This document shows positions 21,900-63,236 of a stretch of 64,000 nucleotides of DNA, in pieces. The stretch lies in the NCBI GenBank assembly GCA_051294905.1, contig CM119371.1, positions 28,212,001 through 28,276,000 of the forward strand. Reading direction: 5' to 3'. The notes beneath the pieces are model-generated. The model did not search any database. It saw only the letters and a program-made list of their open reading frames with translations, and was not told the DNA's origin. The number at the start of each line of letters is the position of its first letter. Position 1 is the first letter of the stretch. The translations under genes and the position numbers were made by a program. The stretch comes from Botryllus schlosseri (taxonomy: Eukaryota).

Positions 21900-22125
21900 A
21901 TGAAGCTGTTAGTTATCTACAAAGCGACTAGGAGAATAGTATACGTGACTGACAAATCAGATATCGAAGCTACGGTGGAGAAAACTTTCAAGAATGAAAT
22001 TAGCAACCGTCCATACAAAATCCAGTATTACGACAGGGATTTTGAAGAATACGTAGATTTGGAAACCATCGACATACAAGATTGCGGTAAAATCAAACTA
22101 ATTGTGGACGAATGTTTGGATAGCG
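21900..22125 (+). CDS. Coding exon for a PB1-like / ubiquitin-like beta-grasp domain; probable first coding exon of the NACHT gene
   Basis: Encodes MKLLVIYKATRRIVYV...KIQYYDRDFEEYVDLETIDIQDCGKIKLIVDECLDS. It has a basic N-terminal strand and an OPCA-like acidic motif (YYDRDFEEYVDL). Upstream acceptor attttccag ends at 21879; consensus donor G|gtaagt at 22126 is phase 1. Confidence 0.7.
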
Positions 22126-22312
22126 GTAAGTCCCACTGTCACGCGTACGTGATAACAAATTAGTTATCATTACTAGTGTTTTTTTTCTGGAAGGAAAAAG
22201 ATTGATGGGCGAGTTATCTTTAAAAATCCCAAAGCTAACCGATAAATCACTGTCAGAAGTGATTAGCGATATGGATAACGAAAGGATACCAGGTTTGTAC
22301 ATATACCAATAT

Positions 22313-42420: not shown

Positions 42421-43513
42421 CAGTGGTTTCCAACCTTTTTGTGTTCGTTCCCCACTTCAGACTTATTTTGAGTCTTCATTCCCCACTACCATAAACCAGG
42501 GTTGTAATGACTCGAGTAATGACTCGACTCGACTCGAGTCATTTTCTAAAAATACGAAAATGAATCGACTCGACTCGAGTCAATCTGTGTATTGACTCGA
42601 CTTGGACTCAAGTCAGTGCGCATGACTCGAACCAAGTCATATGACTCGAGACTCAGACGGCCAAGACCGACATTTCATTGTAATTTCGAAGAATAACAAA
42701 GTAGCCACACTGTTGGAGTTCGTCTATTGGTACTGGTACTTGAAAATGCCACCAGAAACTGCTAAAAGTAAGGAAAATTAGTATATTGTAAATGCGAGTC
42801 ATTCGATATCACCAAACAGAGATATAAAAAGTGGTCTTTACAAGACTTTAACTGAAAGCTGAGCAGTTAATACAATGACTTGGACTCGGACTCTAGTCAT
42901 AATACCATGACTCGGACTCGATTCTCTGCTCGCTGATTTGGACTCGGACTAGACTCGTTGGTGAATTGAAAATGACTCGACTTGACTCGAGTCAAAACTA
43001 TAAAAGTGAGATTGACTTGTGACTCGAAGCCTTGTGAATTGGTTACAACCCTGACAAAAACCCCTTATACCAGTAGTTTTACCACATTTTGATATCCTAA
43101 AAAGAGGACACCTCTATAAATTCGGAAAACTGGTGATTTTGAGAATTTGTCGACCTACAGCGTTGTGTTGAGCAAAGAAAGGTAATCACTTTTACTCGGC
43201 TCCAGATTTTTTACGAAACTCTGACGTTCGCCGCGTCGGAGTAGCATTTATCGTGGCATTTAAATCCTTTTTAGAGAAAAAGAGAACAGATTCCGGAAAA
43301 AGAGGAAAATTAGGGGTGCTCCGGCGACTCTTTCAATTTATAATTCTCGATATATGCATTCCAGAGCATTTAAGCGGTAACGGTAATCGCGCATGTGTAT
43401 CCGTAAATCTGTAGACTATCCCGTATATAATGTTTACCAGATGCGTCTATTCCCCACCATACACCATTGAATTCCCCACCAGTGGGTAATTCCCCACCGG
43501 TTAGGAATCACTG
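42421..43513 (+). mobile_element. Family C MITE interrupting a Tip100-like transposase relic
   Basis: TIRs cagtggtttccaacc / ggttaggaatcactg. TTCCCCAC subterminal repeats. Similar to 31182-33787. Confidence 0.75.
42497..43053 (-). mobile_element. Second family A MITE in inverted orientation, nested in a family C MITE
   Basis: Reverse-complement match to 3738-4328 over its full length. Degenerate TSD ccataaac / acaaaaac. Confidence 0.88.
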
Positions 43514-46500
43514 CCGGACAGAGCTGATAGCCGATAATTATTCATGGTAGAAGGTAAATAAGACTGTATCAGTTTGAGCTTTGAGAAGCTCCTCTCGCAG
43601 CTCGCAATAGAAACACTAATGGTCAGACAAAGTTTCATATACGAGCATAAATATGGTGTCGAATCAAGTAGGTGTGATGTAACTATAACCACTAGGGTTG
43701 TCCAAAATTTGGAAAATCTCAAAAATGATGGGTATCAATGTCTCATTCAATAGGTTATTGATATAAAACAGCAATGAGCCTGGAATATGCTCACAGGAAA
43801 ATCGTTAAGATTTGTCGCAAAGCGTTTAAAAGTAGCTACAGACGGGTGGGAGTGCCAGCGACCATATAACAGCATCAAGACTAGTAATCACGAAATCACG
43901 GCTCTCGATTGGCTAATCGGCTATGCTTCAATGATCACGACGGTGGTGCGGCGGTGATTCTGTAAGCGCATTGTAAGTTGGTTGGCAGATAGTGATTTCA
44001 GATTAATTCATGACATGTTGAGTTACTAAATACATGATGACGAACAAACAACAGCTTCTTCCAACAAACTTAAAGCATGACCGGCTTACTGTCCACGAAA
44101 CTGCCGTAGCCCACATGTCTGTTTTGACCGAGGGAAGGCACAGAACATGCCGACAAATATTGCAACGGCGCTTATGCAAGTGGCGAACGAATGTCTTGTT
44201 TCAGAAAGGATGCATCATCATTGAATACAAGCTTAACAATGACACTACTTTATCTGATCTTATTAGGTTCCAGTCGTGGTATATAATTGAAGTCTTGAAT
44301 GCCCTAAGGATTGGCTGAATAAGCAATTTATGCTGGGGGCTTATTGGGCTCTTACCCCTAAATGAATTCCCTCGTAAGTTTAGTCGAAGAGCAATACGGA
44401 GAAGTTGTATAGGATACGGTGCAACACACATATTGCGCGATTAGTAAACTTGAACAAAAAATATGGTGGATGGTAAAAATACCATATTGTGTAGCTTTAT
44501 TTCCGTAAATTAACGGCATTTCTACACTTGCGTTTACACTTCAACATGTACGTTATCCAGACAAAAGAACTGATATTAATTAGAGCTCAAAGTATATGAT
44601 GGTGGGAATTGAAAGTGAAACATAAATACTACTTCCAAAAGGGGAAAATGTATTTCATGTCTTTAGTCCAGAAAGTTTCAAAGGTGGTATGTTAAAACAG
44701 CTTTAAAACTGAAAAAAGTCAGAGTCCGCTTTTCCAGATTAGGACACGCCATGTACTGCTAGATTACGGTATGATAAGTAAATGCTACGTTGCGAAACAT
44801 CAGTTTCAAATTTTATGATGAGCAATATATACTGTGATGAAATATTTCATATGGGCGAAGGGCGACAATACGGTGTGAACGGAACCACGCCAACCCGCTA
44901 CCTAAATTATATTCACCGGAACTTTCGTGAAATCATACTGGTTACGCTGTATCCACTGAGCGCAAAGCGCGACGAAAATTCTGGGTTTCACTTAACTTTT
45001 ATGAACATTAAATGTTGATACTCCTTAAAAACAGCGCCGAATTTCCTCAGGCTATCTTCCTGATTGGAGGATTAAACTACTTCTAATTGACAAACTGAAA
45101 ATAACGAAAAGTAAGTAAGTAGATCACAAAATATTATGAAGTAGAAGTAGAAGTAGCGAAAATCAGATCTACTTGAGTAAGTACCAGAAGTAGGGGAAAC
45201 TACTTGAGTACTTCGAAAAAGTAGAAGTACTTCATTACTGACCACCTCTGGATAAGACACAATGCGGTGTAATGAATGGATAGGAGAATGCCGAACGACC
45301 AGTTACGTTTGCAGCAGCGGCCTCTTGAAAACGCATCCACCTCGGCCTCACGGCACTAGCCCGATTTCACAGTTCCTTTTTCGATGTTAGTCTCTATTCC
45401 GTGGTCTCTAGGTCATTCTCCCTTCCTCGTAAGTGCGCTCTTTCATCGGGTATTTTTCTGGACTTTTTTGTCACCGTAAGAACGGCGACGCGGGAGAACA
45501 GAATAACCTCCGACCCAGAATCCACCAGGGCCGCTTGGGCGGTAGGCACTCATTGTGACCACTATGCTATCTTCCTCGCTAACTCCGATTTAAAAATGCC
45601 GATCTTAATCGCAAGTTATTGTTGTCCTGATTCCGTAAATACAATTTAAAAGCTGGTCAAGGCAACGGAACCACCCCGAAATAGCCATCAAAGTCTGAAA
45701 ATTGGCATTGCCTTAAATAATCGCTCAACATAATGTGCATTACCTTGGTCAGTTGGTCATTGTGGTGCGGTGCTCCGATTTTCTGGAACAATCTGCCTGG
45801 ACGGCTTTTTCGGAGTGGTTCCATTGCCATTCCCGCATTTTCATGTTTTCGGAATCAGTGCTACACAAGCTTTCGATCGAGACCAGTTTCAATAAATTTT
45901 AGCTATCTGGTCGATGGCTATAGGACTACCAATTACGCTGCTTTTAGCCGGCGGTGTACACTGTGCAGCCTCATTATGCCGCCCCTTAGAGCCTGCCGCC
46001 TCTGCGCAGAGCCATATCCGCCAAGTGGCTGCTACGCCATTGATGGTAACTAGTCGAATTAAACCGAGTCGAAGTTGCCCAGATAAACATGCTACCGCCG
46101 AAACTCGATTATGTTTTTTTTTTGTATTCGCGCCGAAGGATGGGGATTGGACGACTGTACGAACGCGAATAGTATTCCTTCCTTCGACAATATTGAGATA
46201 AGAAGTGTTTTGGGGTCGGACCAAACACCTCATCTCAGTTTATTGCTCGTTCCCTCTTCCACCAGACGTACTACGAATACAATGCACCGCATGAAAACAG
46301 GATTGTCGCTCGCATGTCATCTCCGAATACGGCTTGACATTCAAATCAAATCGCACATGTTACCCGGCCTAATGCTACGTCACGATGCTATAAATTGCAG
46401 AATTAGTGATGTTCTAAATAATTTTAAAACTTGATGTTTTATTTCTTTCGTCAATGAACAAGCCTTCAATGCTTTGCATTTTTCAATCAATGTATGAAAT

Positions 46501-47315
46501 TTTGTTATATCTGGTGGACCGGCAGAAAAGTAGTCGCAGACGGGCGGTTGAGAACCACTGCATTACACACTTCACCTACGCATTCATACGATGCAATTTG
46601 TGCCTGCATAAATTGTTGACGAGGGTATAACGTATAAACTATATCAGTACGACTTAAATCATACAAGAGAATCGCCAAGATGAACACGAAGCAGTCTATA
46701 GAGCAGAAAGACACTGCTATTGATGAATTAGCACATGTCTGCCACAACGTGAGCTTCGATAACTTCGTGTGCGGTCAATTTTGATGTATACTGACCGCGG
46801 ATCAGTACACGCGTCTACGCAATCGTCGAATGACCGCTTGCTCACATCGATCATATCAGCATATCGCGAATAATTACGTACAGTTACAGCGACTGATTTG
46901 ACACTGATTGCTTATTGCCTTGAAATTGACTCGAAAATTTAGCTTCAAGTCACGAATAAATCCACATGTTTGAAACGCCGAGTCAATTGAAGTCTTTTTC
47001 GGAAAGTGACGCAAGTCAAGTTCAGGTCATCTGGAAAAATTGACCCGAGTCTTCACAACACTATTTGAATGCAAAATAAAGTAGCATGGTGGATTTTTTT
47101 CTCAATTGCAAGATACATATTTACGAAAGTTCTGCGCTGTCAGGCCCAATTTGACATTTTCCACGCATAGGAATTTACATTATCCATCATTCAACAATCG
47201 AATATATTGACTTTCAAATGAAGCCCTGATATTCTGACTGATTATGAATTGATTGAAGTTCCTAATGCTGTTTGATTCCATTATGAATGCATTGCGTGAA
47301 ACCATTTTGTTACAG

Positions 47316-47504
47316 AATCCGGACAAAGATCTTCATCGTTACCACCTTATCATATCACAGTAACGGGTGATGTAATTGGAGGAAACAAATATTCCAATAA
47401 CACTGCTGGTACCATAAATGAGGGTGTAATGAATAGTGAACAGAAAGACTGTCACCTCACCATATCTGGGAATACGAGCACTCACCATCTGAAGACAGAA
47501 ACAG
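47316..47504 (+). CDS. Symmetric 189-nt exon encoding an N/G/S/T-rich low-complexity, amyloid-motif-like linker; probably part of the NACHT gene
   Basis: Acceptor ccattttgttacag and donor ACAG|gtgagc. Open in phase 1-1: (E)SGQRSSSLPPYHITVTGDVIGGNKYSNNTAGTINEGVMNSEQKDCHLTISGNTSTHHLKTET. Splices in frame to the NACHT exon (G|AA ATC AAT = EIN). Absent from the ORF track. Confidence 0.7.
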
Positions 47505-47560
47505 GTGAGCAATTAAAGATTTGCAAGTAATTGATCATAAATCTTGCATAGATGCTAGGA

Positions 47561-47861
47561 TAGAGTTACCATACGTCGTCTTTTAGGAGGAAAGTGTCCT
47601 CGGAGGACGCCTAAATGTCATATTTTTTGGGAATTGATCCTCTTTTTCGAGAATTTGGGACTGAGATACACGAAATCAGCGGCCAAGCAACGGTCCGACG
47701 TGATTTCTGAGACCTGAGCCGGAAAAATGACCTTTTTGTAGTCAGGTGACCACAAAGTCGGGGAAACATTTCCATTTTTCCCGGATTTTGCTCCACTACT
47801 GTAACTTTAAAAATTTTGAAAAAGTGTCCTCTTTTCATATTTTCAAAATACGATAACCCTA
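47561..47861 (+). mobile_element. Second TAGGGTTACCATA-family MITE, 56 bp downstream of the 47504 splice donor
   Basis: TIRs tagagttaccata / tacgataacccta. Perfect TSD TGCTAGGA. Confidence 0.85.
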
Positions 47862-48119
47862 TGCTAGGAGTCTTGATTAAATTCGTTTTTCAAGATAACA
47901 GATGTCTATTGACTACTTGAAAATGCATCCTACTTTTGATGCTAGCAACACTCACATTTCAACCGAAGAAAAAATGATGATGGGCGAAAGGGGTAGGGGC
48001 AGTTTCCATCTTTCCAGTTATGTAGGCCTACCAAATAACATAAATAAGTACCAGTTTTTAGAATGTGGGGCACAGAATATCTCTCCATAGCGCTAATGAC
48101 AGTGGCAGATGGTCTGTAG

Positions 48120-50904
48120 CAGTGGTTCTCAACCTTTTTGTCTTCGCGGACCACTTTTGTACCGTGAGGAACCCCGCGGACCTCCTCATGTTTTAGTTCA
48201 AATTTAGCTCAATTATCGTGCGAACGTCATCTGTCTTGTCAACTTAAGGCTAGTGATAAACAGCAACAAAACTACCGTTCTTGAAAACAACATCATACTA
48301 TATGTAGTGATATGGATAGGCTTTTCTTCTTTCGAAGGAACTCCTGCAGCTGTATTTCTTATTTCTTGATATATGTGGTCGTGTCTTGAAAATCAACGCC
48401 TCCGATTTGATCAGAACGAGTGCCGAACCTCCGTTTTCACGATGGCGGTGAATGTAATTTGAGCACGATCGCAACATATATGGCACCAAAATCGAGAAAC
48501 ATATTTTTCAATGAAGTTATCACTACCAGACTAGTCATTTCTATATAGCAGCTCATCTTCAAGAATTTCTGGAATAGTGGTTATTTATATCACAGGAGAG
48601 AATGGATTCCGTGATGAAGTTTTGATCCCTTTTTTGAGACAGACTGGAAAAAAATTTTTTTTTTAACAAACTGCAACAAAACATCTTTAAACAGCACTAT
48701 GTTTGTATCAGAAGGCTATTAGCAACTTTGAAATAAAAATGAGTTCACACCAGGAGTTTCAAACATACGACCCGCCAGACGATTTTAGCCGGCCCGCGAA
48801 GCCATTCCGAGTAGATTGAAAAATACTTGTATTATCCAGCTCATTTTTCACAAATGTTGATTTGTTTGGAAGAAAATACTTCCGGTAAATATTGCCCCAA
48901 GACAGCAAATGTCGAGTATGTTCGTAGCAGGCCACATTATAATCACCAGACTATCGTGTTTTGGTTTCATACTTATTAGCACTGTAGAAACAAATCAGTG
49001 ACATTGAAACCCAATTTCCAAAAAGCAAACAATTGCACATTGAGTTGACTTGGTGCATGTTCGTGCTGCTGTATCGTTTCTGACTCAAAAGGTCCCCGGA
49101 ATGTGGAGAAACCTGAATCGAGATTTATTAAGAATACAATCAATTTAAAAGTCCATGTTTACAGTTTATTATCTTTTATTCCTCACTACGCATACACACG
49201 GCTAACCCTAGATTACTACTTAAGCAAAGGGGGCATAGGAATAAGTGAACTTGTATCGTCGTTACCGCCGCTGTTTTAGCAGCGGTTCATAAGTGCATTC
49301 AACCAACCAATCATCATCGTGAATTCCGTTGTTCGCAATTAAGGGTGTTGCTACTTTCTAGAATAGGCTAAAGCCCATGTGATCCGTGATACAATTTTAA
49401 TATACCAGGGGCGGGCCACATACGGCTCCGCGAAGGGATTTTGTCCGGCCCACGGACAGTTAGGGCCCGACAATTTTCGAGTATCGACGATCTTACATGA
49501 TGAGTTCGGCCGAAAATATCGACTACTCATGTAGCCTACGGCCGAATTCCAGGGCGTAGTCGTAATAAACTAGCTGGAAGCCAAATACCCATGTTAAACT
49601 GCCTATGTCCATGCCTGGTGAATTCCGAACAAATCTCCTTTTTAATATAGGCTTACTATACGCATCGAAATCGCGAGTGGTCACTGGTCAGAATATGAGA
49701 TTGTTGATAGTCGCACGAGGCGCGAAAAATTTTTCAGATTCACTGATTAATTTCGTCATTAATATTCGTAGTTTTACATATTACTATCGATCATTTATTC
49801 TTTCTCAGCCCGTGTGATCAGGTTCACTAATAGAATTGATGGAGGGGATGTTTTCGGAATTTTAGGGCAATTATAAACAATCATGCATCTTCGCCTCGGG
49901 CAATTATTATTAGTCACTTTGTTGCATGCCGTTATTTCTTTATCTCCCAACAGGATTTTCGGTATAGGGAGGACCACACGATTCCGAGCTGGTATTTCTA
50001 TATGAGGCCCATCATTTTCCTCTGCTGTTCACATCTATACTGTGGGGATCCGATTGCAAATGGGGCTACTATATTAAAATCAAAATAGAAGTCACATTGA
50101 ATCGCGCACAACGCGAAGAAAATTTCAAGATTAATTAAAATCTCACAAGAAACCGGAAATCAATTCATAAAGTTGAATTGCATGTCGACGGCCGCCAACA
50201 CATCCTAATTGAATTTCGTATCGACGGCCGCACAAATTTCCTTCTACGGTCGCAGGTTGGCCACCCCTGGTCTCCGGCTATTCGTCCGGTACCGGTCAAG
50301 TAGACACTTTCTTGTGGAAATTAGTTGGAGTAGTAAGATCACAGAGTGAATTCTCAATGTTTGCAAAAATCCATTTTCTCTTGTGATATGGATAAACACC
50401 ATTCCAGATAAACTTCAAGATGGGCTGCTATATAGAAATGCCTATACGCTGGACGTTATAAGTTCATTAAAAATCTGCTTCTCAATTTGGGTGCCATAAA
50501 TGTGGCGATGCTATAGAATGGTGTCGTCGGAAGCGTTACCCGTTATTATTATATCGCCAACACCTATCTTTGTGGAAATGGATTTTCGGCAATCGTTCAT
50601 ATCAAATCGTAGGTGCAAATTTTCAAGACACGTCCACGTATTTCTATAAATGCAGCTGTAGCATTCGCTTTGAAATAATAAAAGTTTACCAGGTTTCTAC
50701 AAAAATAGTATGATATTATTTTCAAGAAAAGTCATTTTGTTGCTGTTCATCAATAAACTACAGTTAATATTTGAACAAGACATACGGCGGTTGTACAATA
50801 ATGGAGCTAAATTTGAACTAAAAATTGTGTGTGTAGAGGCGTTCCGCGACGGTCAGTGACAATCCTAAAGGGGTCTGCGAAGATAAAAAGGTTGAGAACC
50901 ACTG
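48120..50904. mobile_element. Charlie-type element, or inverted pair of copies, with long diverged inverted arms and nested MITEs
   Basis: TIRs cagtggttctcaaccttttt / aaaaaggttgagaaccactg. Arms about 48190-48650 match about 50380-50830 in reverse. No TSD. Nested ends near 48750 and 49406-50269. Confidence 0.65.
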
Positions 50905-53319
50905 TACTAAATCATCATTTGGATCACAACGGCCGAAGTTTCCTGGCAATTTTCCAAATCTGAACAACCCTAATGTACACGTTGTACAACGTTAAAACAG
51001 TGACATCACGTTTTAATACCGGTACTGCGCTCTTATCAAGCCGTACAGTCCAATTAAATCTTGAAATGGTGCGACTTGTTCAACTGTCACTGCAGAAATC
51101 CAGTTTTTACCAAATATTCCCAATAATCACCAGTTCGTCCGTCGTCGATCAAATTTCGTAGAATATTGGTTACCCTTCACACGAATCGAATAAACTCAGA
51201 ATTAGTGCCGTTGAGAATCTGGTGTTGCATCAATATTCGAGAACTTGATGCAACGCCGTACACTGTACAAGTGTACAGCTGTACAAGTCAGAAACCATTT
51301 AAACTGCACGGTTGCAAGTGAGATTACTCAACAATTCCAAAATACGATCCGAAAAGAATGAATACACAACTTCGATGTTTACAAATTGAAAAGCGCGCAT
51401 CCTATCACTAATTGCCCTCTTATATTCAACACGAGGGCAGGGTTCGGACAACACATTGACTAGATATCATCGCGACAATTGTATGCGGACTACAATAACG
51501 ATATAGGCTGCTTCGATGCATATCCTTATTTACATTCGCAAATCGCTTTTGGAGTAAACGATCATGCACTGGAATGAAGTTCAATTCGTAGGCATAAACG
51601 ATACCACACTGTCAAATTTGTCGCTGCGGCTGCGATTAAAAAACTGTCAACCAAGGTCGTGCAATCGCTCATCCAATTCAGAATGGAGAAGATGTTCTTC
51701 AGCGTGCGGCATGCGCGCCTCCAAATCGAAATGTGCAGCAAGGTCACGATTCTATCCTCTAACATCGCTTATATATTCGACTAATTACTAATTAGGTAAA
51801 TTGCTCAGCTCACATAAGCATCAATCCCGCTTTGTGACATTCATTGTTTTTACTATTTTACGAGCCATATAATTGGTCATCGCTGTTATGCTGAAAGCGA
51901 AATTGCGGGTGTATCCATAAATAGTGAGTACGGATAGAGCGCGGCAAATCCAGCCCACCAAGGTTTGGCACCTATGTAGGAACAAAGTTTACCACACTTA
52001 AAATGGTACTCCGATATCCAAAGTGATATTTTCATACTGCGTAATGTGCGTATGTTTCAATTCGATGTCACAGATTCCGACAATAGGTTTTATGCGGGTG
52101 TATCGATTCCTAAACTTTGCTCCCACCAGTTAAAACGAAAATCGAGTGTGCGTGTACTTTTAGGTTGACAATTCTATTGAGTTTAATACGTCTACAATAT
52201 ACTTGAATACATCGATCGTGATAGTGTTCGGTAGATTCACAAATCGAGATGATGATAATGCTGTTCCTAAAATCTTTGCTCCATAACTCTTTCGTAAGTT
52301 CGTTACAACTCAGTCGTAATGAATTTCTGAATACAAATCTTAAAAAAACAAGTTGAAGACGAATGATTTGTTTTTTAATAAACTAGAAAAGTACTTTTGT
52401 TTTGTAATTGGATTTGTGTTCTGATATTGATAGATGTGTTGAGTAATATGCCCAGTTTATAAAAAATTCGGTAATGATTTTGGTACCTTAAGTCGGGCGA
52501 TCAATCATAAAATCGCGGTAATGTTTCTTGCGTGTGCGCGTTATCATCAAATTAATACGACTGCATCTTACTGATGGAATAAAAACACAGGTCTGTGATA
52601 TGTGAAGACAACCGAGATTGATTAATATAGTTTACAGTAGAAATGATTGTGTATATTAGCGAAAACGTGGCTACTTTTCTTCGAGTAATTCAGATAAGTT
52701 GATAAATCAATGTGGTAATAACTACGACCGTGAAGAGTTTCTCACATCTCGATGTCTTACATTAGGCTATAACATGCGGATTCACTTGTTGGAATTGCCA
52801 TCATTGACTAAGTATTCAAATCACGTCGTATGCACCGAGTAGTAATTACTTTGTGTTATAGAATAATAACGACTTTTACAGTCGAATAAAAATTACCGGT
52901 CATATGAATACGACCAGGATGAATTAATTCAGGTTTGCAAGTTGTAGTGACATAATCAAGTAAGTGGAAAGTTGATTTAACACTTGGTAATTTTGTTGTG
53001 AATAATTCTTTTGAGCATGGTAAGATTCAACTAACAATTACATTTCCAGCTACGAAAAAAGTAACTGGATTGCTAATAAATTGTAGGAATTCATGAGTCT
53101 GCGTGTTTCAGATCAATATGTGAATAATCAAACAGACAGGTAACTCTATTTGATGGATCTGAAATAATATTATCTTGATGTCAAGGCGGTAAATTAACAT
53201 ATTCGGATTTCAAGTTTGCGAATTAGCACATTGATCGAGTATTCCCATGATTCTTATCACACAACTAAAGTCAACCTCTATTCCAGAGGTGTTAAAACAC
53301 TGACAAAGCGATCGTCAGA

Positions 53320-54555
53320 AAGTGTCAAATTGTTGGTATTCAAGTCACCGTCTGCGACGGTTCTGTAATTCGTTACTTATTACTTAACATTTTAGCTACC
53401 AAGGCCTATTATTGGAAATTACCAGTAAATGCCAGCAAACAATTAATTTTCGACTAGTTGGATATTTAGCTGGAATCGGGCGTGCTGATAAGTATAAACC
53501 TTGTGCATCTTATGAAAAATATTTTTTTCTTTAATACCAAGGAATTATAATAATATTGCAATTTTTGGCTGCTCATTTTATGAAAAGCCACCTAGTGGTC
53601 AAACCAAAAAAAGATTGGCCAATTGTATACAGATGTGATTTAAAAAAAATACTTCCGTAAACAACAATGGTTGTTTCTCACAACAAGCCTATTGAGTAGC
53701 CTCGAATACACCCGTAATCCGGAGATAGATCCAATTCCGGACTTCACTGTACGCATTTGAAAAATATCTTAAATATAAGATCGCTGGCACTTTATGGATT
53801 TGGGTAAAATCCTAAATTTTGGATTGTTGGCAGTCAAAGTGTTAATAGATATTATACTTATTATATCTCCCTCGCGATATCCGGTTCCGCGCCAAACTAC
53901 CAAAATATTACCTTGTGAGCAATTGGTATGTCTGCAGCAGCAAGTCACGAGAGATGGCTATGTCCGAGGTGTTACATTGTGAGCGTTCGTCGGATTTTAG
54001 AATTAGTCCACATCTTTTTGAATAAGCGTTAACTTCGCAAAGGATTAGGGTAAGAGCAGAAATAAGTGACAATTTGTTGGTATTTAAGTCCCGTCGGAGG
54101 CGGTTCTGTCATTCGTTACTTACTTACTAAATCTTACCAGCGAAATCCAGCTCTGTGACAAACTGTTTACCAAAATTTTACCTTGTGAGCGATCGGTATG
54201 TATGTAACAGAAAGTCACGAGTGATCGCTATGTCTTAGGTGATATCTTGTCAGCGATCACTGGTTTGTAACTTATTTCACACCTATTTGAAGTGTTAGTT
54301 TGCGAGCGCGACTATTGTTGGTTTTCGAATCACCGTCGTCTACGACGACTCTGGCAAACTAATTACCAACATATTACCACGCGAGCGATTCCTAGATTTA
54401 GCAAACTATTTCACACCTTTTTGAAGTGTTAGTTTGCGAGCGCGGTTGTTGTTGGTTTTCGAATCGCCGTCTGCGACTACTCTGTGGCAAACTAATTACC
54501 AAAATATTACCGTGCGAGTGATTCCTAGATTTAACAAACTATTTCACACCTTTTT
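53320..54555. repeat. Complex degenerate tandem array, including two ~133-bp units at about 54274-54550
   Basis: tatttcacacct..ttgaagtgttagtttgcgagcgcg recurs at about 54274 and 54407. caaact..accaaaat.ttacc recurs near 53893, 54160, 54355 and 54488. 53325-53385 resembles 54068-54128. Confidence 0.75.
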
Positions 54556-57500
54556 TCTGAAAGCGCGAATTGCCACCGCAGCCTATACCTGAAAGTACGA
54601 CATACCACCGCGCCCATAAGAATATGGATATATTGGTGTTGCACTCACTGTAAACGTTCGGATTACCTCGAACTGGTCGTATATAATAATTTGGAATATA
54701 CATATTAGGTAGCGATCAATCACCTGATCAATAAACTTTAGCCTATACACATTCAACACCATGTCGACGATGACTATACCTGAAACAACCCCTCAGCAAC
54801 ACGCCCAATACCTCAAAGAGACACCATGCGAGAGATGCCTATACTACCCCACGCACCGGTTCAGCGATAGGGGGTCAAAAAGGTGCCATCAACAACACGA
54901 GTTTTCAACCATCCGCGTCACCGCAAGAGGTCACCTCATCCGAGATCCCTATACTTTCAACGCACATGTTCAGCGATAGGGGGTCCAAAAGGGCCACCAG
55001 TCCAACACGTGTTTCGAGTCACCGGTCGAGTGGGCCCATAAGAACCCCTGCCGCGCCCAGAGATATCATATATACGACTTACGTGGGCTGAGATAGGACA
55101 ATAAAATGAATAGTAGTTTATTAAATTACTAATGTCAATGACGGAATTCAGGTATGAATCGGAAGTTTGAATGATCACCCTAGAGGGGCCAAGAACCACA
55201 TTTAAGAGAAGGGCCGGCGAAGTGCTGTTTCGGTCGTGATTCTGGCTGCAACACACGCTATCATGTTGTAGGTAGAAGGTTCTGGAGGCAGATCTAAATG
55301 TTAAGTAAAGAATTGTGAAGTAACGATTGGGGCTCACGGTCATATGCGGATAATGTTTTTCGCTGTTGAACAACGAACATACACAAGCCTATTGCCTCTT
55401 ATCAGAATTACTCGGTTATAATTTATATCCGCACCGTTGATTTTAAATGCTTCAATGTTTAAATGGTAATTTTTCCTTTGATGAGCACAGAATTTCAAAG
55501 CATTGTCCGGCGTACGTAGGCTTGCATTTGAAACGAACGGTGTTTTAAAAAAATTGTTTAAAACATGTTTTAAACACTGTTTTGAGCAGAGGCCTGTTAA
55601 AAATGTGTTTTTTCAAGTTGTAAAATTATACCATAATTGTGAATATACTTTAGAAAAAACATGTTGTATGAGCCTACGGACAATTACCACACGATATAGC
55701 CGACGAATATCGATATGGGATGGTTGGAACCCCCAAAATATTCGGTTCAACAGCAATTGTACTGATATTTCGTCAAGGGAGCTAGATTTACCCTACATTT
55801 TCAACGGTCAATGCCAATCCACTATGACGTCACTATTGAATATTGGTGACGTCATTGGTTAAAATATGTTTTAAACAAGGGCCTTGTTATAAACATGTTT
55901 GTTTTAAATTGATTTTTGTTTTAAATGCAACAATGGGTGTACGTAGAGTACATAGACCTGCTCCTCGCCAAGTAGCGACGTTCAAACCGCGTTTAACTAA
56001 GCATAACCAAACATCAATACATAAGTTATTATATGAAACAAGGCGGAGTGGTGATTATTATCCTGTTGTGAGGTAGTGGCGTATGGAGTATATTGATAAA
56101 CAGATATACGGCACTCCAGTGGTTCATACAATTATGTAAATCGAACATCCATTAACTACATGTGGATAATTCTTCACGCAATGACTAGCAATGCTGATGA
56201 AATCCTACGATTCTGATATCAATAAATCAGATATAATGACGCCGTGCAAGTACCTTGTACGAACAATAACTAATTGCTCTTTCACAAAGAACTCGAACAG
56301 ATATATGAAATAATAGACTACGATTACGATTATTTCTTTTTTTTTCGAATGTAATCGATTGCGATTACGATTGCATTAAAGTGATGTAATCGTCGTAATC
56401 GTTTTCGATTACTAATCCCGATTACCCCGTATCTGGCTTGCATCATACTTAATCAAGTGATTATCTATTTGGACTGCATCTACTTCTACTTCAGTGTTAA
56501 AAAGTTTTTAGGTAAATCAAGCACTTTAATACCTACTTTTTACTCGGTCCGGAAATCACCACTTCTTGTACTTAGTAGAAATTTAATGGTAATACAATGT
56601 TGAAATGTACTTTTTCAACGGCCTTGATGAACGTTACCAGTTTCATCTATATCGTACAATGCATTTCCTCGGTCCAGAATGACTTATCGCAATGAGAAAT
56701 AGCAAATAAATCGAGAATTTGCAAAGTCCCACTTTGAGATATTTGAGTTTCCGAAATTATCCTTCGAAATGAACCCATGTGTTTGGTATTATCGAAAGCC
56801 TCGTGAAATCCCAGGGTCAAACGAGATCCCAAGAAAGATGGCTTCGATTGGAATATTACAGGAACTTTGATATTCTATGATTGCGATATTACTCGTCTTG
56901 GAAACTAAAGGTTGCGTTTACGATCTCAAACACAGACACAGTATAGGATAAATTTACACAATGTGTCCTCTTGCCACGGTATTACTATAGTGCAATAGCT
57001 TTCAACCTATTTGATGGTACGCATTTTCTTGCGAATGAAAACAATCTGAACTAACGTGGTGCGCATGGTGAATGAAATCCGGACGAATATGGATGAAAAT
57101 TGTAGATAAGAGTTACTTTCTCTGACGTTGAAAATATCAAATAAAGCTAATAGAAAATTCCAGTGCCGTGGCTCCCTAACAATCTGCAATTGCGACTCAA
57201 TTGTAAAAACTTGTTTGACTTATGACGCACCACTAATCGTAGCTTTTACAATAACACTGTCTCTAACCAGCCGTATAGTGAAATATTATTAGCGCACTGT
57301 AATTATTACTTAATCAAAAGCTTGGTTCAAAAGCGGGTGACGTGGCAGGCATACAAATGGGCTTTCTGCTTTCTTTGGCTGAGCAATCGTCAGATTTTTG
57401 TAATACCAGTTCGATTATCGCGAGGCTCGAGGATAGTCGTAAATACCATCATTTCTGACTCACATATGCAAGCCAATGTAACGCAAATAATTACCTCTTT

Positions 57501-59979
57501 TTGGGTTGTTAAAGTATGGGTCGCAGAGAATAAATTTTTTGGTTGGCACGGCACCCGAGCGCTCTGTTAATGTCTATGTAATATTTGTTGAATTTATTGC
57601 AAAAAATCCAACGGATAGTTTTTACAAATCCAATGGCGCTGTGTTAGATATAGCCTATAAGCGAGACACGCAGAAACTATTGCTTGATCGTGAGAATGTG
57701 CCGACCTTCGTACTATACAAATTGATTTGAATTTATGGGATTTCTCTGATTGGTGTCTCTAGAAAACATCGTCGTAGACCGTTGGTATATACTAGTGTAG
57801 GGGTGTCCAACGAGTGAGTTTGGGCCTATGATACACATTCATTATAAGGCCAACCACTTGTGCGGCGTGGCGCACGAAGATGTAAAGTTTAGTTCGGTAT
57901 TCGGTTCGGTTAGTTTGCAAATTTTATCAGTTTAATAAACTACACTATTGCGATATATTGAAAAGATAGGAATGTGTCGAAACGACTTGGTGTAGTCTCT
58001 GGAATCAGATACTCACCTTGGCCTATCCACCGCTGGTAATATCCGGTTCCAAAAAGATCAGCGCGACAAAACGTTGGCCAAAAAAGACAGTCGCTGGTTG
58101 GCCAAAACTTCCGATATGGATATGCTCAGTTGTCGAAATGATCGTCAGTTGGCACCGAATAGTCTCGTTCTTTCAATCTGAGTAGACAGTCGTACAAATG
58201 CGACGAGCAAACGAATTTCAATCACCCCACCCAGTCAACAAAATGGGATGCGATCACACGACGCTTCATGCGCATTCGATGTCAAAATGATGCTTCAAAA
58301 GAAAGAATTTTCGCACTTCTGCCGCAGACTCATTAACCTGCTGTTGCTGTCCATTAACCCTCTCGCTACTGCAGCTTACAACCGCTATTCGCCCTATCGC
58401 TACCTGAATCATTGTGTCATTCTGGCATACATACTCAGCCTTATGTTGTAAGACATCACAATTTGACTATATATTTCATTATAGTTTCAGTTATACTAAT
58501 ATTCACCACGAGCATACATACAAGATACCGGCAAATACAGACAGGCATCCATATAAAATGCATAAAACGACATATTCATTTCAGTCGAGATACAGAGAGC
58601 TTTTCAGGACAAGTTTGATGCAACTATTACTGCTCTTGAATTGAAATTTAGACAAAATCTGATTTATCAAACAAGTCTGTGCCTGGGCGGGAAGAATAGG
58701 ACTAAGCAACGCGGAGCTGCAATCAGCAGTCTACTCACTGTGTGGCACGCAACTTCATTCAGAGGCCAATTGTAAATGATTTTCCCCACGTTTAGGCTTG
58801 GCGTGGTCTCTGATATCTGGGTAGTTCCCCTGGCCTCATATTCGATTGATGTACTGTCAGCCAGATATCTTTAGCAGTGATAATCGGCTGATCATGGCCA
58901 TTGTCGCTGCAGGATGAAACAATGCTTGGAGGACGATATTTTATATACTGTTGCCAGCTCCGCCAACGATGCATCCTTTTCAATTCACCCTCAGACTTAT
59001 ACTTATATTCGGGCATATCCCAATCACTTCATGGCTTCAGTCCAATCGTAAAATAAAGGCGAAATATAGCAAGAAAAAAAGTCGTAGATTAACTGAAATG
59101 AGTATCACAAATTTTAATCAGAAATTATTACAAGATATAGTATTTGGCTGACCTGTCGAAATGCCAACCGTTGTAACGTACATTTTATGATGGTAGATGC
59201 AGTCACAGACATTGCAGACAGAGAAAATAGATGGGTTGATCATATGCCATGATTCGGTATGTACATTAGGGCTCTTCAAAAATGACTTTTTTTCACAAAT
59301 TGTACTGGCTACTTGATAAAATTGTTAGGTTACCTAATTTAAACCTACACACAAAATTTTGGTTCAATTCCAGCCAGTAACCGCTTTGCTACGGGAGAAG
59401 AAAGTTTATATTTATTGTATAAAAATAAATGATAAAAAATTTGAAAATATTTTGTTCATCCCATGAAAGTGTTAGGCTGTCTATAGAAACGATGCTGACC
59501 AAATTTGGTTCAATTCCAACCAGTGGAAGTGGGGTTATTGGCCTCGAAAAATTTTGATTTGAATAAAATAGTGTTCATGGTGAGCCCAACTATATTAAAT
59601 AAACAAAGAATTGGTAACCGTAAATACTATTTTATTCAAATCAAAATTTTTCGAGTATTTGACATTTTTTTGGAGGGAGCATTTTTGATGGTTGATAGAG
59701 CGATTTAATGTTGTGGTTAATGAAGACTCGGAGCAAATCGGAAGTGGGGAATGATGGAAAAACGCTGTGAATCAGTGCCTTAAAATTATGAATTCATCGT
59801 TACCGATTACGATCATAAAACACCAATACCACATGTTTAACCTGTAGCAGAGAAATTCCGAAAAAAGGTGATGTGCACATAGTGCACAACTACTACTACT
59901 AGCGTTTTACTTGCGAAGGTCGATCTTACCTATTTCACATATTCATTATTTTATATGTGTTATAATATTTTTATAACAG

Positions 59980-61386
59980 AAATCAATTACGAAGAACTGT
60001 TAAGCACTGTCAACATCAATACCATGAGCACAACGTCAGATACCATACTTTCTGATTTCCAACATGAGGAACTTCATGAAGCAGGCTGTGTAGTCTACAC
60101 GCAGATGGTAGAAATTGACATAAACAACTACTATAAAGGTCGAAGTGAAGTTCATCGAAATCAGTTAATAAAAGAATTCGGATTTAACCGTCAACAGGAG
60201 AATAGAAGTAAAGCAATCGTAGTGAAAGATTTCATGGAATCAATATGGGAAAGAAATCGGATGGGTCAAGATGGCGTATTGGGATTCACTGCCATTATCG
60301 GTTCAGCGGGATCAGGAAAAACGACTCTTACTCGAAGAATGGCTCGAAAAGCGCTCGGTATTCGGTCGGCAGATCAAGAAGATGAAAAAATGTCTCATGA
60401 CGACAGAAAGCAAAACATGGTTCATTACATTGAATTGAAGGAGATCCAAGAACAAGAATCGATTACTCTACCTGAATTTATTTTTAGAGAGCTTGACAAG
60501 TCTGATCGAGACCAAGCTTTCAAGTGGTTAGTTCAAAACCAATCAAAAGCAATACTAATATTTGACGGCCTTGATCAAACGAGATGGGAGATTAACCGTA
60601 CAAATCCTCGTAAAATAAGACATGATGAAAGTGCAAGCACATCAATCATATTGTACAATATCTTAGCTCGCAATATTCTTTGCCAAGTCAAAATTTTTAT
60701 AGCTTCTCGTAATTTCAAAGTCTCAGAGTTACCATTTGACGCCCGACCGAAGAGAATCATCGCGCTAAACGGCTTCAATCCGAAAGATGCGGAAACGCTC
60801 TTCATTTCTCTACTTGACGGTAAAGGGGCAGAGCTCTGGGAAAAAGTTGAAGTTATGTCACCACAATTGCTCCAACTAGTCTGTGTACCGGTTTTCCTGA
60901 TTCTAACGGCAATCGTAATGGGGAGGGACCCAAACAGAGATCCTCCCACTACAGTCACTGAATTGTACAACAGGATTATATTAAATCTTGAAAGTGTTAG
61001 AAATATCCGAAATCCGGAACGAATTATCGCGATAATCCAAAAATTGAAGAAAATGGCATTTCGTGGCATGCAAGAGGGGAAAGTCGAGTTCAAAGAGACC
61101 GAATTGGAAAGCGTAGGAATTTCGGCGCGAGAAGTGGAAGATTTGATGTCGAAAATTCCGGATACAAAAAAGCTTGTACGTTGTCGTTTACTGCCGAAAG
61201 ATTTCGATTTCTTCTTTTGCCATCAAAGTCTGCAAGAATTCCTTGCAGCGAGTTTTGTAGCAGAAATGAACCTTGAAGATTTTTCTCGCTTCGACGAAGA
61301 ATACCTCCATAACGAACGATGGTCTGTAGTTCGAAGATTCGTCGCAGGAATCGTATCTTCAAAATCAGCGAATGAGCTTCACAATG
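59980..61386 (+). CDS. Large internal exon encoding a NACHT NTPase plus helical/winged-helix domains (NLR-like protein)
   Basis: Lies within the 478-aa ORF 59955-61391. Motifs: Walker A GSAGSGKTT (from 60300), Walker B ILIFDGLDQ (60552-60578), sensor-1 IFIASR, LNGF, CVPVFL, TVTELY, LKKMAFRGM, winged-helix FFFCHQSLQEFLAA, RWSVVRRFVAGI. Acceptor ttttataacag ends at 59979; donor G|gttagc starts at 61387. Both junctions are phase 1. Confidence 0.93.
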
Positions 61387-62271
61387 GTTAGCATCATCAT
61401 TCAACCGATCGATGCCATATTGACTATACGCTGACATTGCTAGCCCGAATTAGTATCCCCAGGCCTTGTAAATGTGGTATTAACAAATGATTCCCGAACG
61501 CCTACGGAGAGTCAAATAGAGCGATCGAGGAAATTACCGAGTCAGCTATTGAGTGTTCGGCTTCATTGCCTTGTGGCGTTACCTATCACGTCGAGTCGAG
61601 TCGAGTCAAGTCCTCAAAGTAGGAGTTAGTAGGATAACTAATCAATGACGGAGAATTTCTGTGTATCTATTCCATAAGTTTTGGTCATTCGCAAACAATT
61701 ATGAGTACAATGTTTTCAATGTGATGCAATTTCGAAAATTTTCGAAAGACGTCTCCGTCATTAAGCTTGCGATTCGTTGGTTTCTACATAGGTATTTTTG
61801 GCCCTTTGACCCAACAGACGATCTTAAACTATATTACAATCACATTACTAGAGATAGTGAGCATCACCGGAAGGTTCTAATTTGTGTGACCACGGAATTC
61901 TATAATAGACTTGCTCTGAAGATGAACCTGCGGCGTCAAGAGAAATCACTTATCTAATTATAATTTTTACATTCTCACAATGTATGAATGTATATAATAC
62001 TTAAAAGGCGAAGCGATTTTCAAACAAGCATAGTGTAATTTTGACGTTCATAACATGGTACTTTCACAACAACATAATCCAAAATCATTAAGGAGGCGCA
62101 TGTTTTGCCCCTCCCCCTATCCATGCATGTAGATTGCAGAATTAACTCATTCCTATATGTACGTTATGTTGGTTTATTATGCAGTGACTTGTCCATGTCT
62201 TTGACCGTCTGGATAAACATGAATACGTATTGAAATTTGCGGATAATTGCAACTACTTAGATGTCTTAGAC

Positions 62272-63236
62272 CAAGGGGCTAGCCAGTAACCCGCGGGCCA
62301 ATGTGGCCCGGGTAAAGGTTTTGAGTGGCCCGCGATTTTTTCTCAGATCGTACTGGCTACTTGATAAAATGACTTCCTTTAACCCTACACACTAAATTGG
62401 GCTCAATTCCAACCAGTAGCAGCATTGCTACAGGAGAAGAAAGTTTCAAAGGTTTAGAAATTACTTTTATTAATGAAAAAATAAATCACCCATGTAATTT
62501 ATTGCGAACTTGCAAGGACGAAGAAAGTTTGATTAGCCTGACTGCGAAATTCGTGAACTTGATGACTAAAATCTCAGCCCCGACGAATTTGCATGGCAAA
62601 GAACCAGCCACATTTTTAGTATATCTTTGTATATGACCATAGAATAGAATATCTCGTGATAGATTTATTTGACTTGATATTTTTCTTAGCACTTCGCGCG
62701 ATTTATTGTCACTAGAATTATTGCTTTTAGTATTGGTGCCTCCTCCAGAAAATTAGGAATTGAAAATTGAGTCGAATTATATTCGTAGTTCTAAGAGAAC
62801 GTGTCGTCCAGCATGTGAATTCACGTCTGCACTCAAAGAAACATAGTAGGCGATGAAACCTCTGCACAAAATGATGGACGCATGTTCACCGAAATCTTCG
62901 ATACTGATATGTCCAAGCGCCGAATAATCCTGTCGTTGCGAAATGAGCCCAGCGGTATATAGAGGCGAGCATCAATATATGCAAATAACATTGTTATTGA
63001 CAGAATTCATTCATTACCCATGAGAAGATTTCGCGCTTTGCGTGGCTAAGACTTTAATGCACACTGAGTTTCCAAGACATAATTGTTATCGATTTTGATG
63101 CCTAGTAATGTAAGTCGCATTGTTACCGTTACTTAATCCCATCGGACGACTAAAAAGGTTATCAACATTTAAGAGGTTCTGGCAATGACTCGTAAATCTC
63201 ATGTGGCCCATGGGCCGAAAAGGTTGGCCACGCCTC
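62272..63236. mobile_element. hAT/Charlie-type MITE in the intron after the NACHT exon
   Basis: GTGGCCC subterminal repeats. Perfect TSD TCTTAGAC at 62264-71 and 63237-44. Contains a fragment similar to 59300-59440. Confidence 0.75.

Follow-up and report, generated by a model that had tools for sequence, protein, structure and literature searches.

A predicted symmetric cassette exon ahead of the NACHT domain in two distant NLR genes of Botryllus schlosseri

A predicted exon of 189 nt, here called cassette B, appears to be an optional cassette that probably moved by exon shuffling from one member of a large NLR family to another, distant one. It lies in the window, by which we mean the whole stretch of 64,000 nt of B. 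schlosseri DNA that was analysed (CM119371.1, positions 28,212,001 to 28,276,000). On balance, we favour reading B as a spacer, shuffled and in frame, that carries accessory strand segments, in a receptor that signals through a clustered beta-grasp head. Placed between the N-terminal module and NACHT, B would contribute about 63 residues, for the most part disordered and including one or two short stretches prone to form strands, and would act as a spacer or as an accessory low-affinity strand segment. The main output would come from the beta-grasp domains, which, to judge by their fold and position, would cluster when NACHT oligomerises; the gene would take this route now that its own tag, exon A, has probably decayed. 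The features of the gene are as follows.

21900..22125, plus strand: predicted first coding exon, from the ATG to a phase-1 donor, encoding a 75-aa beta-grasp fold (PB1/CIDE-N/ubiquitin-like); common to the nearest NACHT relatives, with an AF2 model
22194..22292, plus strand: predicted second exon, 99 nt, a phase 1-1 linker with an AAG acceptor; a homologous exon exists in the C14 and C10 relatives
47316..47504, plus strand: cassette B, 189 nt, phase 1-1; predicted to be an internal coding exon from its splice signals, an open frame and a constrained paralogue
59760..59868, plus strand: probable decayed exon A, boundaries approximate; based on synteny with the intact exon A of the C14 and C10 relatives and on shuffles
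59980..61386, plus strand: NACHT/winged-helix exon, 1407 nt, phase 1-1, frame intact, with Walker A; based on Pfam

Judged by its sequence, cassette B is probably a coding exon with predicted splicing. It is flanked by a ttttgttacag acceptor on the 5' side and a gtgagc donor on the 3' side, and just one frame is open, giving 62 whole codons and one split codon. The symmetric exon claimed in the preliminary description is thus present in the sequence, in its length, its AG…GT flanks, its single open frame and its 1-1 phase. An alternative in-phase acceptor is possible at 47361. Since both B and the NACHT exon are of phase 1-1, B could join NACHT in frame. The exon lies outside the repeat mask, and 71% of the window is repeat matching other loci. 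The peptide has a Ser/Pro-rich start and two strand-like segments, ITVTGDVI and LTISGNT; Asn, Gly, Ser and Thr make up 48% of it, against 21% in six NACHT relatives. Seven RNA runs were added by species label, with 6–43% of each raw run read and an identity to the window that was mostly below 95%; X12 placed nothing. Over 43001–63000, runs X3, X7, X12 and X22 gave zero splice joints and hardly any depth over the NACHT exon, with nearly all reads falling on repeats, which has no bearing on expression; over 46700–47555, runs X22, X23, X6 and X9 gave a depth of zero across B, and given the partial reading and low identity this has no bearing on expression either.

Protein search of the 495-Mb genome assembly G000 found a sole other copy of the cassette, G000:C1:3498689-3498868 on the minus strand, 12.45 kb upstream of a different NACHT exon. 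The two copies share 53% amino-acid identity, with indels of 2 codons and 9 codons. The paralogue is also of phase 1-1; the donors are homologous and the acceptors lie 12 nt apart, with the phase kept. Over the 52 codons that could be aligned, differences fall on codon positions 1/2/3 as 12/14/27 (binomial p=0.006), a bias that persists in the 44 codons of the two gap-free end blocks (p=0.014). Identical residues number 28 of 52, compared with 21.0±2.4 in a neutral simulation, a value reached by 65 of 20000 runs, and Nei-Gojobori estimates give dN 0.34 and dS 1.11, a dN/dS of about 0.3; the comparison is of two sequences, the core block of which was aligned at the protein level. About 150 nt of the intron upstream of B is homologous between the carriers as well (68% of ungapped columns), so some of the similarity of the pair reflects shared ancestry. 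At the paralogue locus, exon 1 and an intact exon A lie upstream of B, with A about 870 nt away. The introns between B and NACHT are nearly equal in length (12,475 nt at 47505–59979 and 12,454 nt at G000:C1:3486235-3498688); blastn finds no colinear homology between them, and the agreement is possibly due to chance.

These data bear on whether the exon is still in use. It seems to us improbable that B was formerly coding and is now skipped, dead or in no current transcript, having been stranded by recombination between paralogues in a repeat-rich intron. Such a relic would fit the repeat content of the window and the decay that is common in this NLR family, as in the exon A remnant here and the split NACHT exon on C10; the acceptors of the two copies differ, and an open frame survives in 26% of neutral simulations at the divergence of the pair. 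Against it, frame, phase and donor are kept in both copies, the indels are net in-frame, the B acceptor resembles those of other exons of the family, and the gene's other exons are intact.

We found two copies of B only, in protein searches of G000, with two patterns and with a profile HMM over the fetched loci (217 loci, 1.41 Mb); the protein searches used single sequences, and short motifs are easily missed by such means. The remaining 1 and 20 matches of the two patterns were unrelated or represented NACHT in a different reading frame. A pattern match at L147 was rejected as a copy because it is intronic and then runs into a stop, as were 20 of the 22 matches of the second pattern, put down to NACHT read in a different frame or to chance. 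In a quick tree of 41 rows, the NACHT domains of the two B carriers fell in different well-supported clades, and their monophyly was rejected in a tree of 17 selected NACHT sequences (deltaL 251, AU p=5e-87). No B was found between the first exon or exon A and NACHT in the nearest relatives at C14:19556063, C10:11546186, C1:3253762 and C1:177575. As the carriers are not sisters and their nearest relatives lack B, the distribution fits exon shuffling or repeated loss. Transfer of B between paralogues is the simplest reading of these sequence data, and repeated loss would also explain them. The earlier suggestion that a 1-1 phase would allow shuffling agrees with this patchy distribution and with the splice phase of the family, in which all upstream exons examined are of phase 1.

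The host gene belongs to a large family. Its NACHT exon matched Pfam NACHT at E=2.4e-19 and NOD2_WH at E=1.8e-5 (PF05729 at 70.2 bits, cut-off 26.7), and has at least 91 scored paralogous loci in G000. Cassette B lies 12.5 kb upstream of this exon and the beta-grasp exon 25 kb upstream of B, and just outside the window, further downstream, comes a conserved exon that contains an LRR-like stretch. Were these joined in one transcript, as we infer, the predicted protein would consist of the beta-grasp domain, the linker, B (from residue 109), NACHT and the LRR-like exon. A single-exon NACHT with a winged helix, followed by an LRR-like exon, resembles animal NLRs of the NOD1/2, NLRP and NLRC4 type. 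Unlike in those, no death-fold domain was found upstream of NACHT in the window gene, and a beta-grasp domain is predicted instead. A divergent NACHT exon (L107, G000:C1:28322298-28322789) lies about 50 kb downstream of the window gene, and neither exon A nor exon 1 nor B was found in the 46 kb between them.

The AF2 model of the beta-grasp exon (pLDDT 80.8) runs strand-strand-helix-helix-strand-strand-strand. VIA placed it at a tied Z of 7.2–7.5 to CIDE-N, PB1 and UBL (rmsd 2.0–3.3 over 65–75 residues), where a Z below 8 may mean a common arrangement only. The best Foldseek match had E 0.011 and none reached E≤0.001, so the model does not choose among PB1, CIDE-N and UBL. PB1 and CIDE-N folds are homotypic interaction modules. 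The exon had 86 matches in G000, and 9 of the best 10 lay upstream of a listed NACHT. The weaker matches fell into groups that are 94–100% identical over 1–3 kb and adjoin a long transposase-like frame (DUF4218 at E=0.083, below the cut-off), part of an element that we take to be CACTA/EnSpm. This suggests, from sequence, that an exon of a DNA transposon was captured to serve as the head domain of NLRs. The beta-grasp exon heads a clade of about nine NLR genes, and 76 further, more distant matches lie in near-identical multi-copy elements.

HMM searches of the window and its flanks found neither the standard exon 1 of the family (MAEG…) nor an intact exon A. In the nearest relatives, on C14 and C10, an A-type exon stands immediately before NACHT. 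The probable remnant of A in the window has stops in frame on either side and lacks an acceptor at the homologous place. Against the C14 exon, 13 of 1000 shuffles and 4 of 473 window tiles aligned at least as well as this remnant, and against the C10 exon 231 of 1000 shuffles did; the A-HMM gave it 4.4 bits. Six genes were scanned besides the two B carriers: two further beta-grasp-headed genes had other candidate 1-1 exons in the slot before NACHT, and two were without a convincing one. The candidate cassettes, at L112 (~900–1050, minus) and L065 (~1730–1835, minus), are loosely A-like and highly diverged. In one of the nearest relatives, at G000:C10:11546186-11552800 (L003, L062), the NACHT exon is interrupted by an insert of about 5 kb.

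Cassette B had been proposed as a new animal amyloid-signalling motif built, like the prion-forming domain of HET-s, from two pseudo-repeats. HITVTGD begins at position 12 of the window peptide and HLTISGN at position 46, so the 34-residue offset is real; the repeat itself did not hold up. The best self-similarity of the peptide was equalled in 252 of 5000 shuffles, a borderline result for a likeness spanning about 7 residues, and that of the paralogue in 4147 of 5000. The spacing between glycines in the paralogue is 25, not 34, and the stretch GGNKYSNNT of the window copy is absent from it, so the motif was not conserved where conservation could be checked. PMC5485727 describes HET-s as two 21-residue repeats with a loop of 15 residues, to which an offset of 34 comes near; the wider HET-s/HRAM class is defined by two 21-residue pseudo-repeats on either side of a 6–15-residue loop, kept among homologues. 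We nevertheless give hardly any credence to a HET-s-like two-rung beta-solenoid: the likeness is short (p ~0.05), the paralogue does not keep its spacing, and searches of Pfam and the PDB by sequence gave no match. We rejected this model.

The layout of B also differs from that of known systems. In fungi and bacteria, an often doubled motif is described on the effector, encoded by an adjacent gene, and a single copy on the NLR, right at its N-terminus (PMC5485727; bioRxiv 2020.01.06.895854); a doubled motif on the receptor would therefore be the opposite of that arrangement. Like the fungal (HET-s/HRAM with NWD2, PP, sigma) and bacterial (BASS1–10) motifs, B is a short strand-prone segment rich in Gly, Asn, Val and Ile that precedes NACHT. 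Unlike them, it is internal, has no detected partner and lacks a conserved repeat. The N-terminal placement drawn from those systems finds no support here, as 108 predicted residues precede B in the window gene and exon 1 and exon A precede it in the paralogue. Nor was the same motif found on an effector or other partner: G000 searches, an HMM over 20 fetched kinase loci and searches outside the genome gave none, and B occurred in 0 of 679 candidate longer proteins.

The RHIM core consensus is (I/V)Q(I/V/L/C)G, and its absence from B, already pointed out in the preliminary description, was borne out: neither of the two copies has the tetrad. No Pfam family, RHIM included, matched the window copy at E≤1 or the paralogue at E≤10, with HMMER filters that discard most matches above E ~0.1. 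Sequence searches of the PDB with the B, A and beta-grasp alignments gave nothing meaningful; a match of A to a designed barrel was a repeat artefact. When a profile of the two B copies was run against 1.84 billion representatives, a sole match came up, a bacterial Ig-like repeat protein, which we set aside as compositional (it covers the LTISG stretch only, over several repeats). A four-copy complex prediction for the B peptide scored 0.02 and speaks neither for nor against assembly, and ESM Atlas gave a best score of 0.75 both for B and for the beta-grasp exon, to be read as leads only. The animal case closest in layout is the amphioxus RHIM-NACHT-repeat protein BF82280 (Kajava et al. 2014, PMC4262963): there too, in a NACHT protein of an animal, the slot usually filled by a death fold is taken by a short non-globular motif. 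It differs in that B has neither the core tetrad nor a Pfam match. For animals, the text of PMC12261475 available to us names RHIM alone as a motif of this kind.

A more widespread candidate is exon A, the common tag of the family. It had 148 matches in G000 at E≤10, 61 of them at E<0.001, with the conserved core LAEGENVNQ…NSSVNVVAGDQI, and usually comes after a short exon that begins with ATG and ends in a phase-1 donor. On the same strand, it lies within 30 kb upstream of 54 of the 91 NACHT exons and downstream of 3; the opposite-strand counts are 0 and 0. It also lies within 10 kb upstream of 4 of 30 listed kinase exons on C3 (control positions 0, 0, 0). Over the 20 fetched kinase loci, the A-HMM matched the 4 that had been picked for having A and 0 of the 16 others. 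These four loci (L148, L149, L150 and L151) carry single-exon kinase domains with exon A upstream and intact phase-1 splice sites, and are part of a big cluster of single-exon kinases at 16–21 Mb of C3, which look IRE1/RNase L-like. An insertion resembling an LTR retroelement (gag/RT/integrase-like frames) and a long dinucleotide repeat lie upstream of the kinase exon at L154, and an A-type exon at L123:3450-3580 (G000:C5:25557050) is apparently frameshifted. The RHIM core tetrad occurred in 0 of 24 copies of A. Exon A resembles B in its slot before NACHT, its 1-1 phase and one weakly similar strand, and differs in its number of matches and its presence on kinases. As A, and not B, was found on the kinase loci, the signature of a motif shared with a partner belongs to A, which we regard as the stronger amyloid-motif candidate of the NLR family on sequence grounds.

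The link between the two exons raises another reading of B, as a signalling tag of the beta-stacking (amyloid) type that would have diverged from A, replaced the decayed copy and be templated, upon NACHT oligomerisation, onto partners bearing A or B, such as the A-headed kinases. The first strand of B aligns with the second half of A (VVAGDQIHGNK; hhalign E=0.0023), the A of the window gene appears decayed, and A stands ahead of NACHTs and kinases alike with intact splice sites. Residues 12–52 of the window peptide lean towards the composition of signalling motifs, which are described as rich in Q, N, G, V and I and poor in K, P and L (bioRxiv 2020.01.06.895854, section 9): the two fractions are 0.49/0.07 in this core and 0.36/0.09 in that of the paralogue, compared with 0.53/0.09 in exon A and 0.29/0.18 in the NACHT exon. 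The alignment is weak, however, covering 16 columns at an hhalign probability of 12.6%, and the A-HMM matched the B copies at E=0.11–1 (hmmsearch) and at E=4.1 at the DNA level. The paralogue has an intact A directly upstream of B, so B is no substitute there, and has lost the GNK segment in which the window copy is like A; B was found on none of the kinase loci or anywhere else, is internal, and has no conserved repeat. We consider such a substitution unlikely, while B may still derive from an old duplicate of exon A, with which its similarity is weak. Less likely still is a composite history in which the gene took up a beta-grasp head of transposon origin, parted with A, the amyloid-type tag that would couple to kinases, and gained by shuffling a second tag, B, that re-routes the signal.

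The spacer reading that we prefer draws on what was kept between the two copies. Conservation is highest at the Ser-rich start and in two short cores (ITV.GD.I and ISGNT); the paralogue lacks the Asn-rich middle, and its charge rises to 29%. A start and cores that are kept, a middle that is deleted and a shift in charge form a pattern as in a linker. Some observations weigh against this reading. The dN/dS of the pair is equal to or below the expectation for a free linker, and together with the retention of both Gly-containing cores this makes a specific role for B possible; the Q/N/G/V/I bias of the core comes near that of exon A; and the predicted introns on either side of B are long.

Amyloid-type motifs ahead of NACHT are already known from fungi, bacteria and, as RHIM, amphioxus (PMC4262963). 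Our literature search, mostly by listings, found no published description of motifs A or B, which does not prove their absence from print. Taken alone, B is a minor module; its context shows a large invertebrate NLR family remodelling its signalling end, with phase-1 cassettes gained, swapped and lost and with a beta-grasp domain akin to a mobile element heading one clade. If A does couple NLRs to kinases by amyloid templating, signalling in the style of fungi and bacteria would extend to a non-RHIM animal system, and the window gene, with A decayed and B present, would be a natural control. If the swap of A for B as a tag were true, the specificity of amyloid signalling would have been exchanged at the level of an exon within a family of animal receptors.
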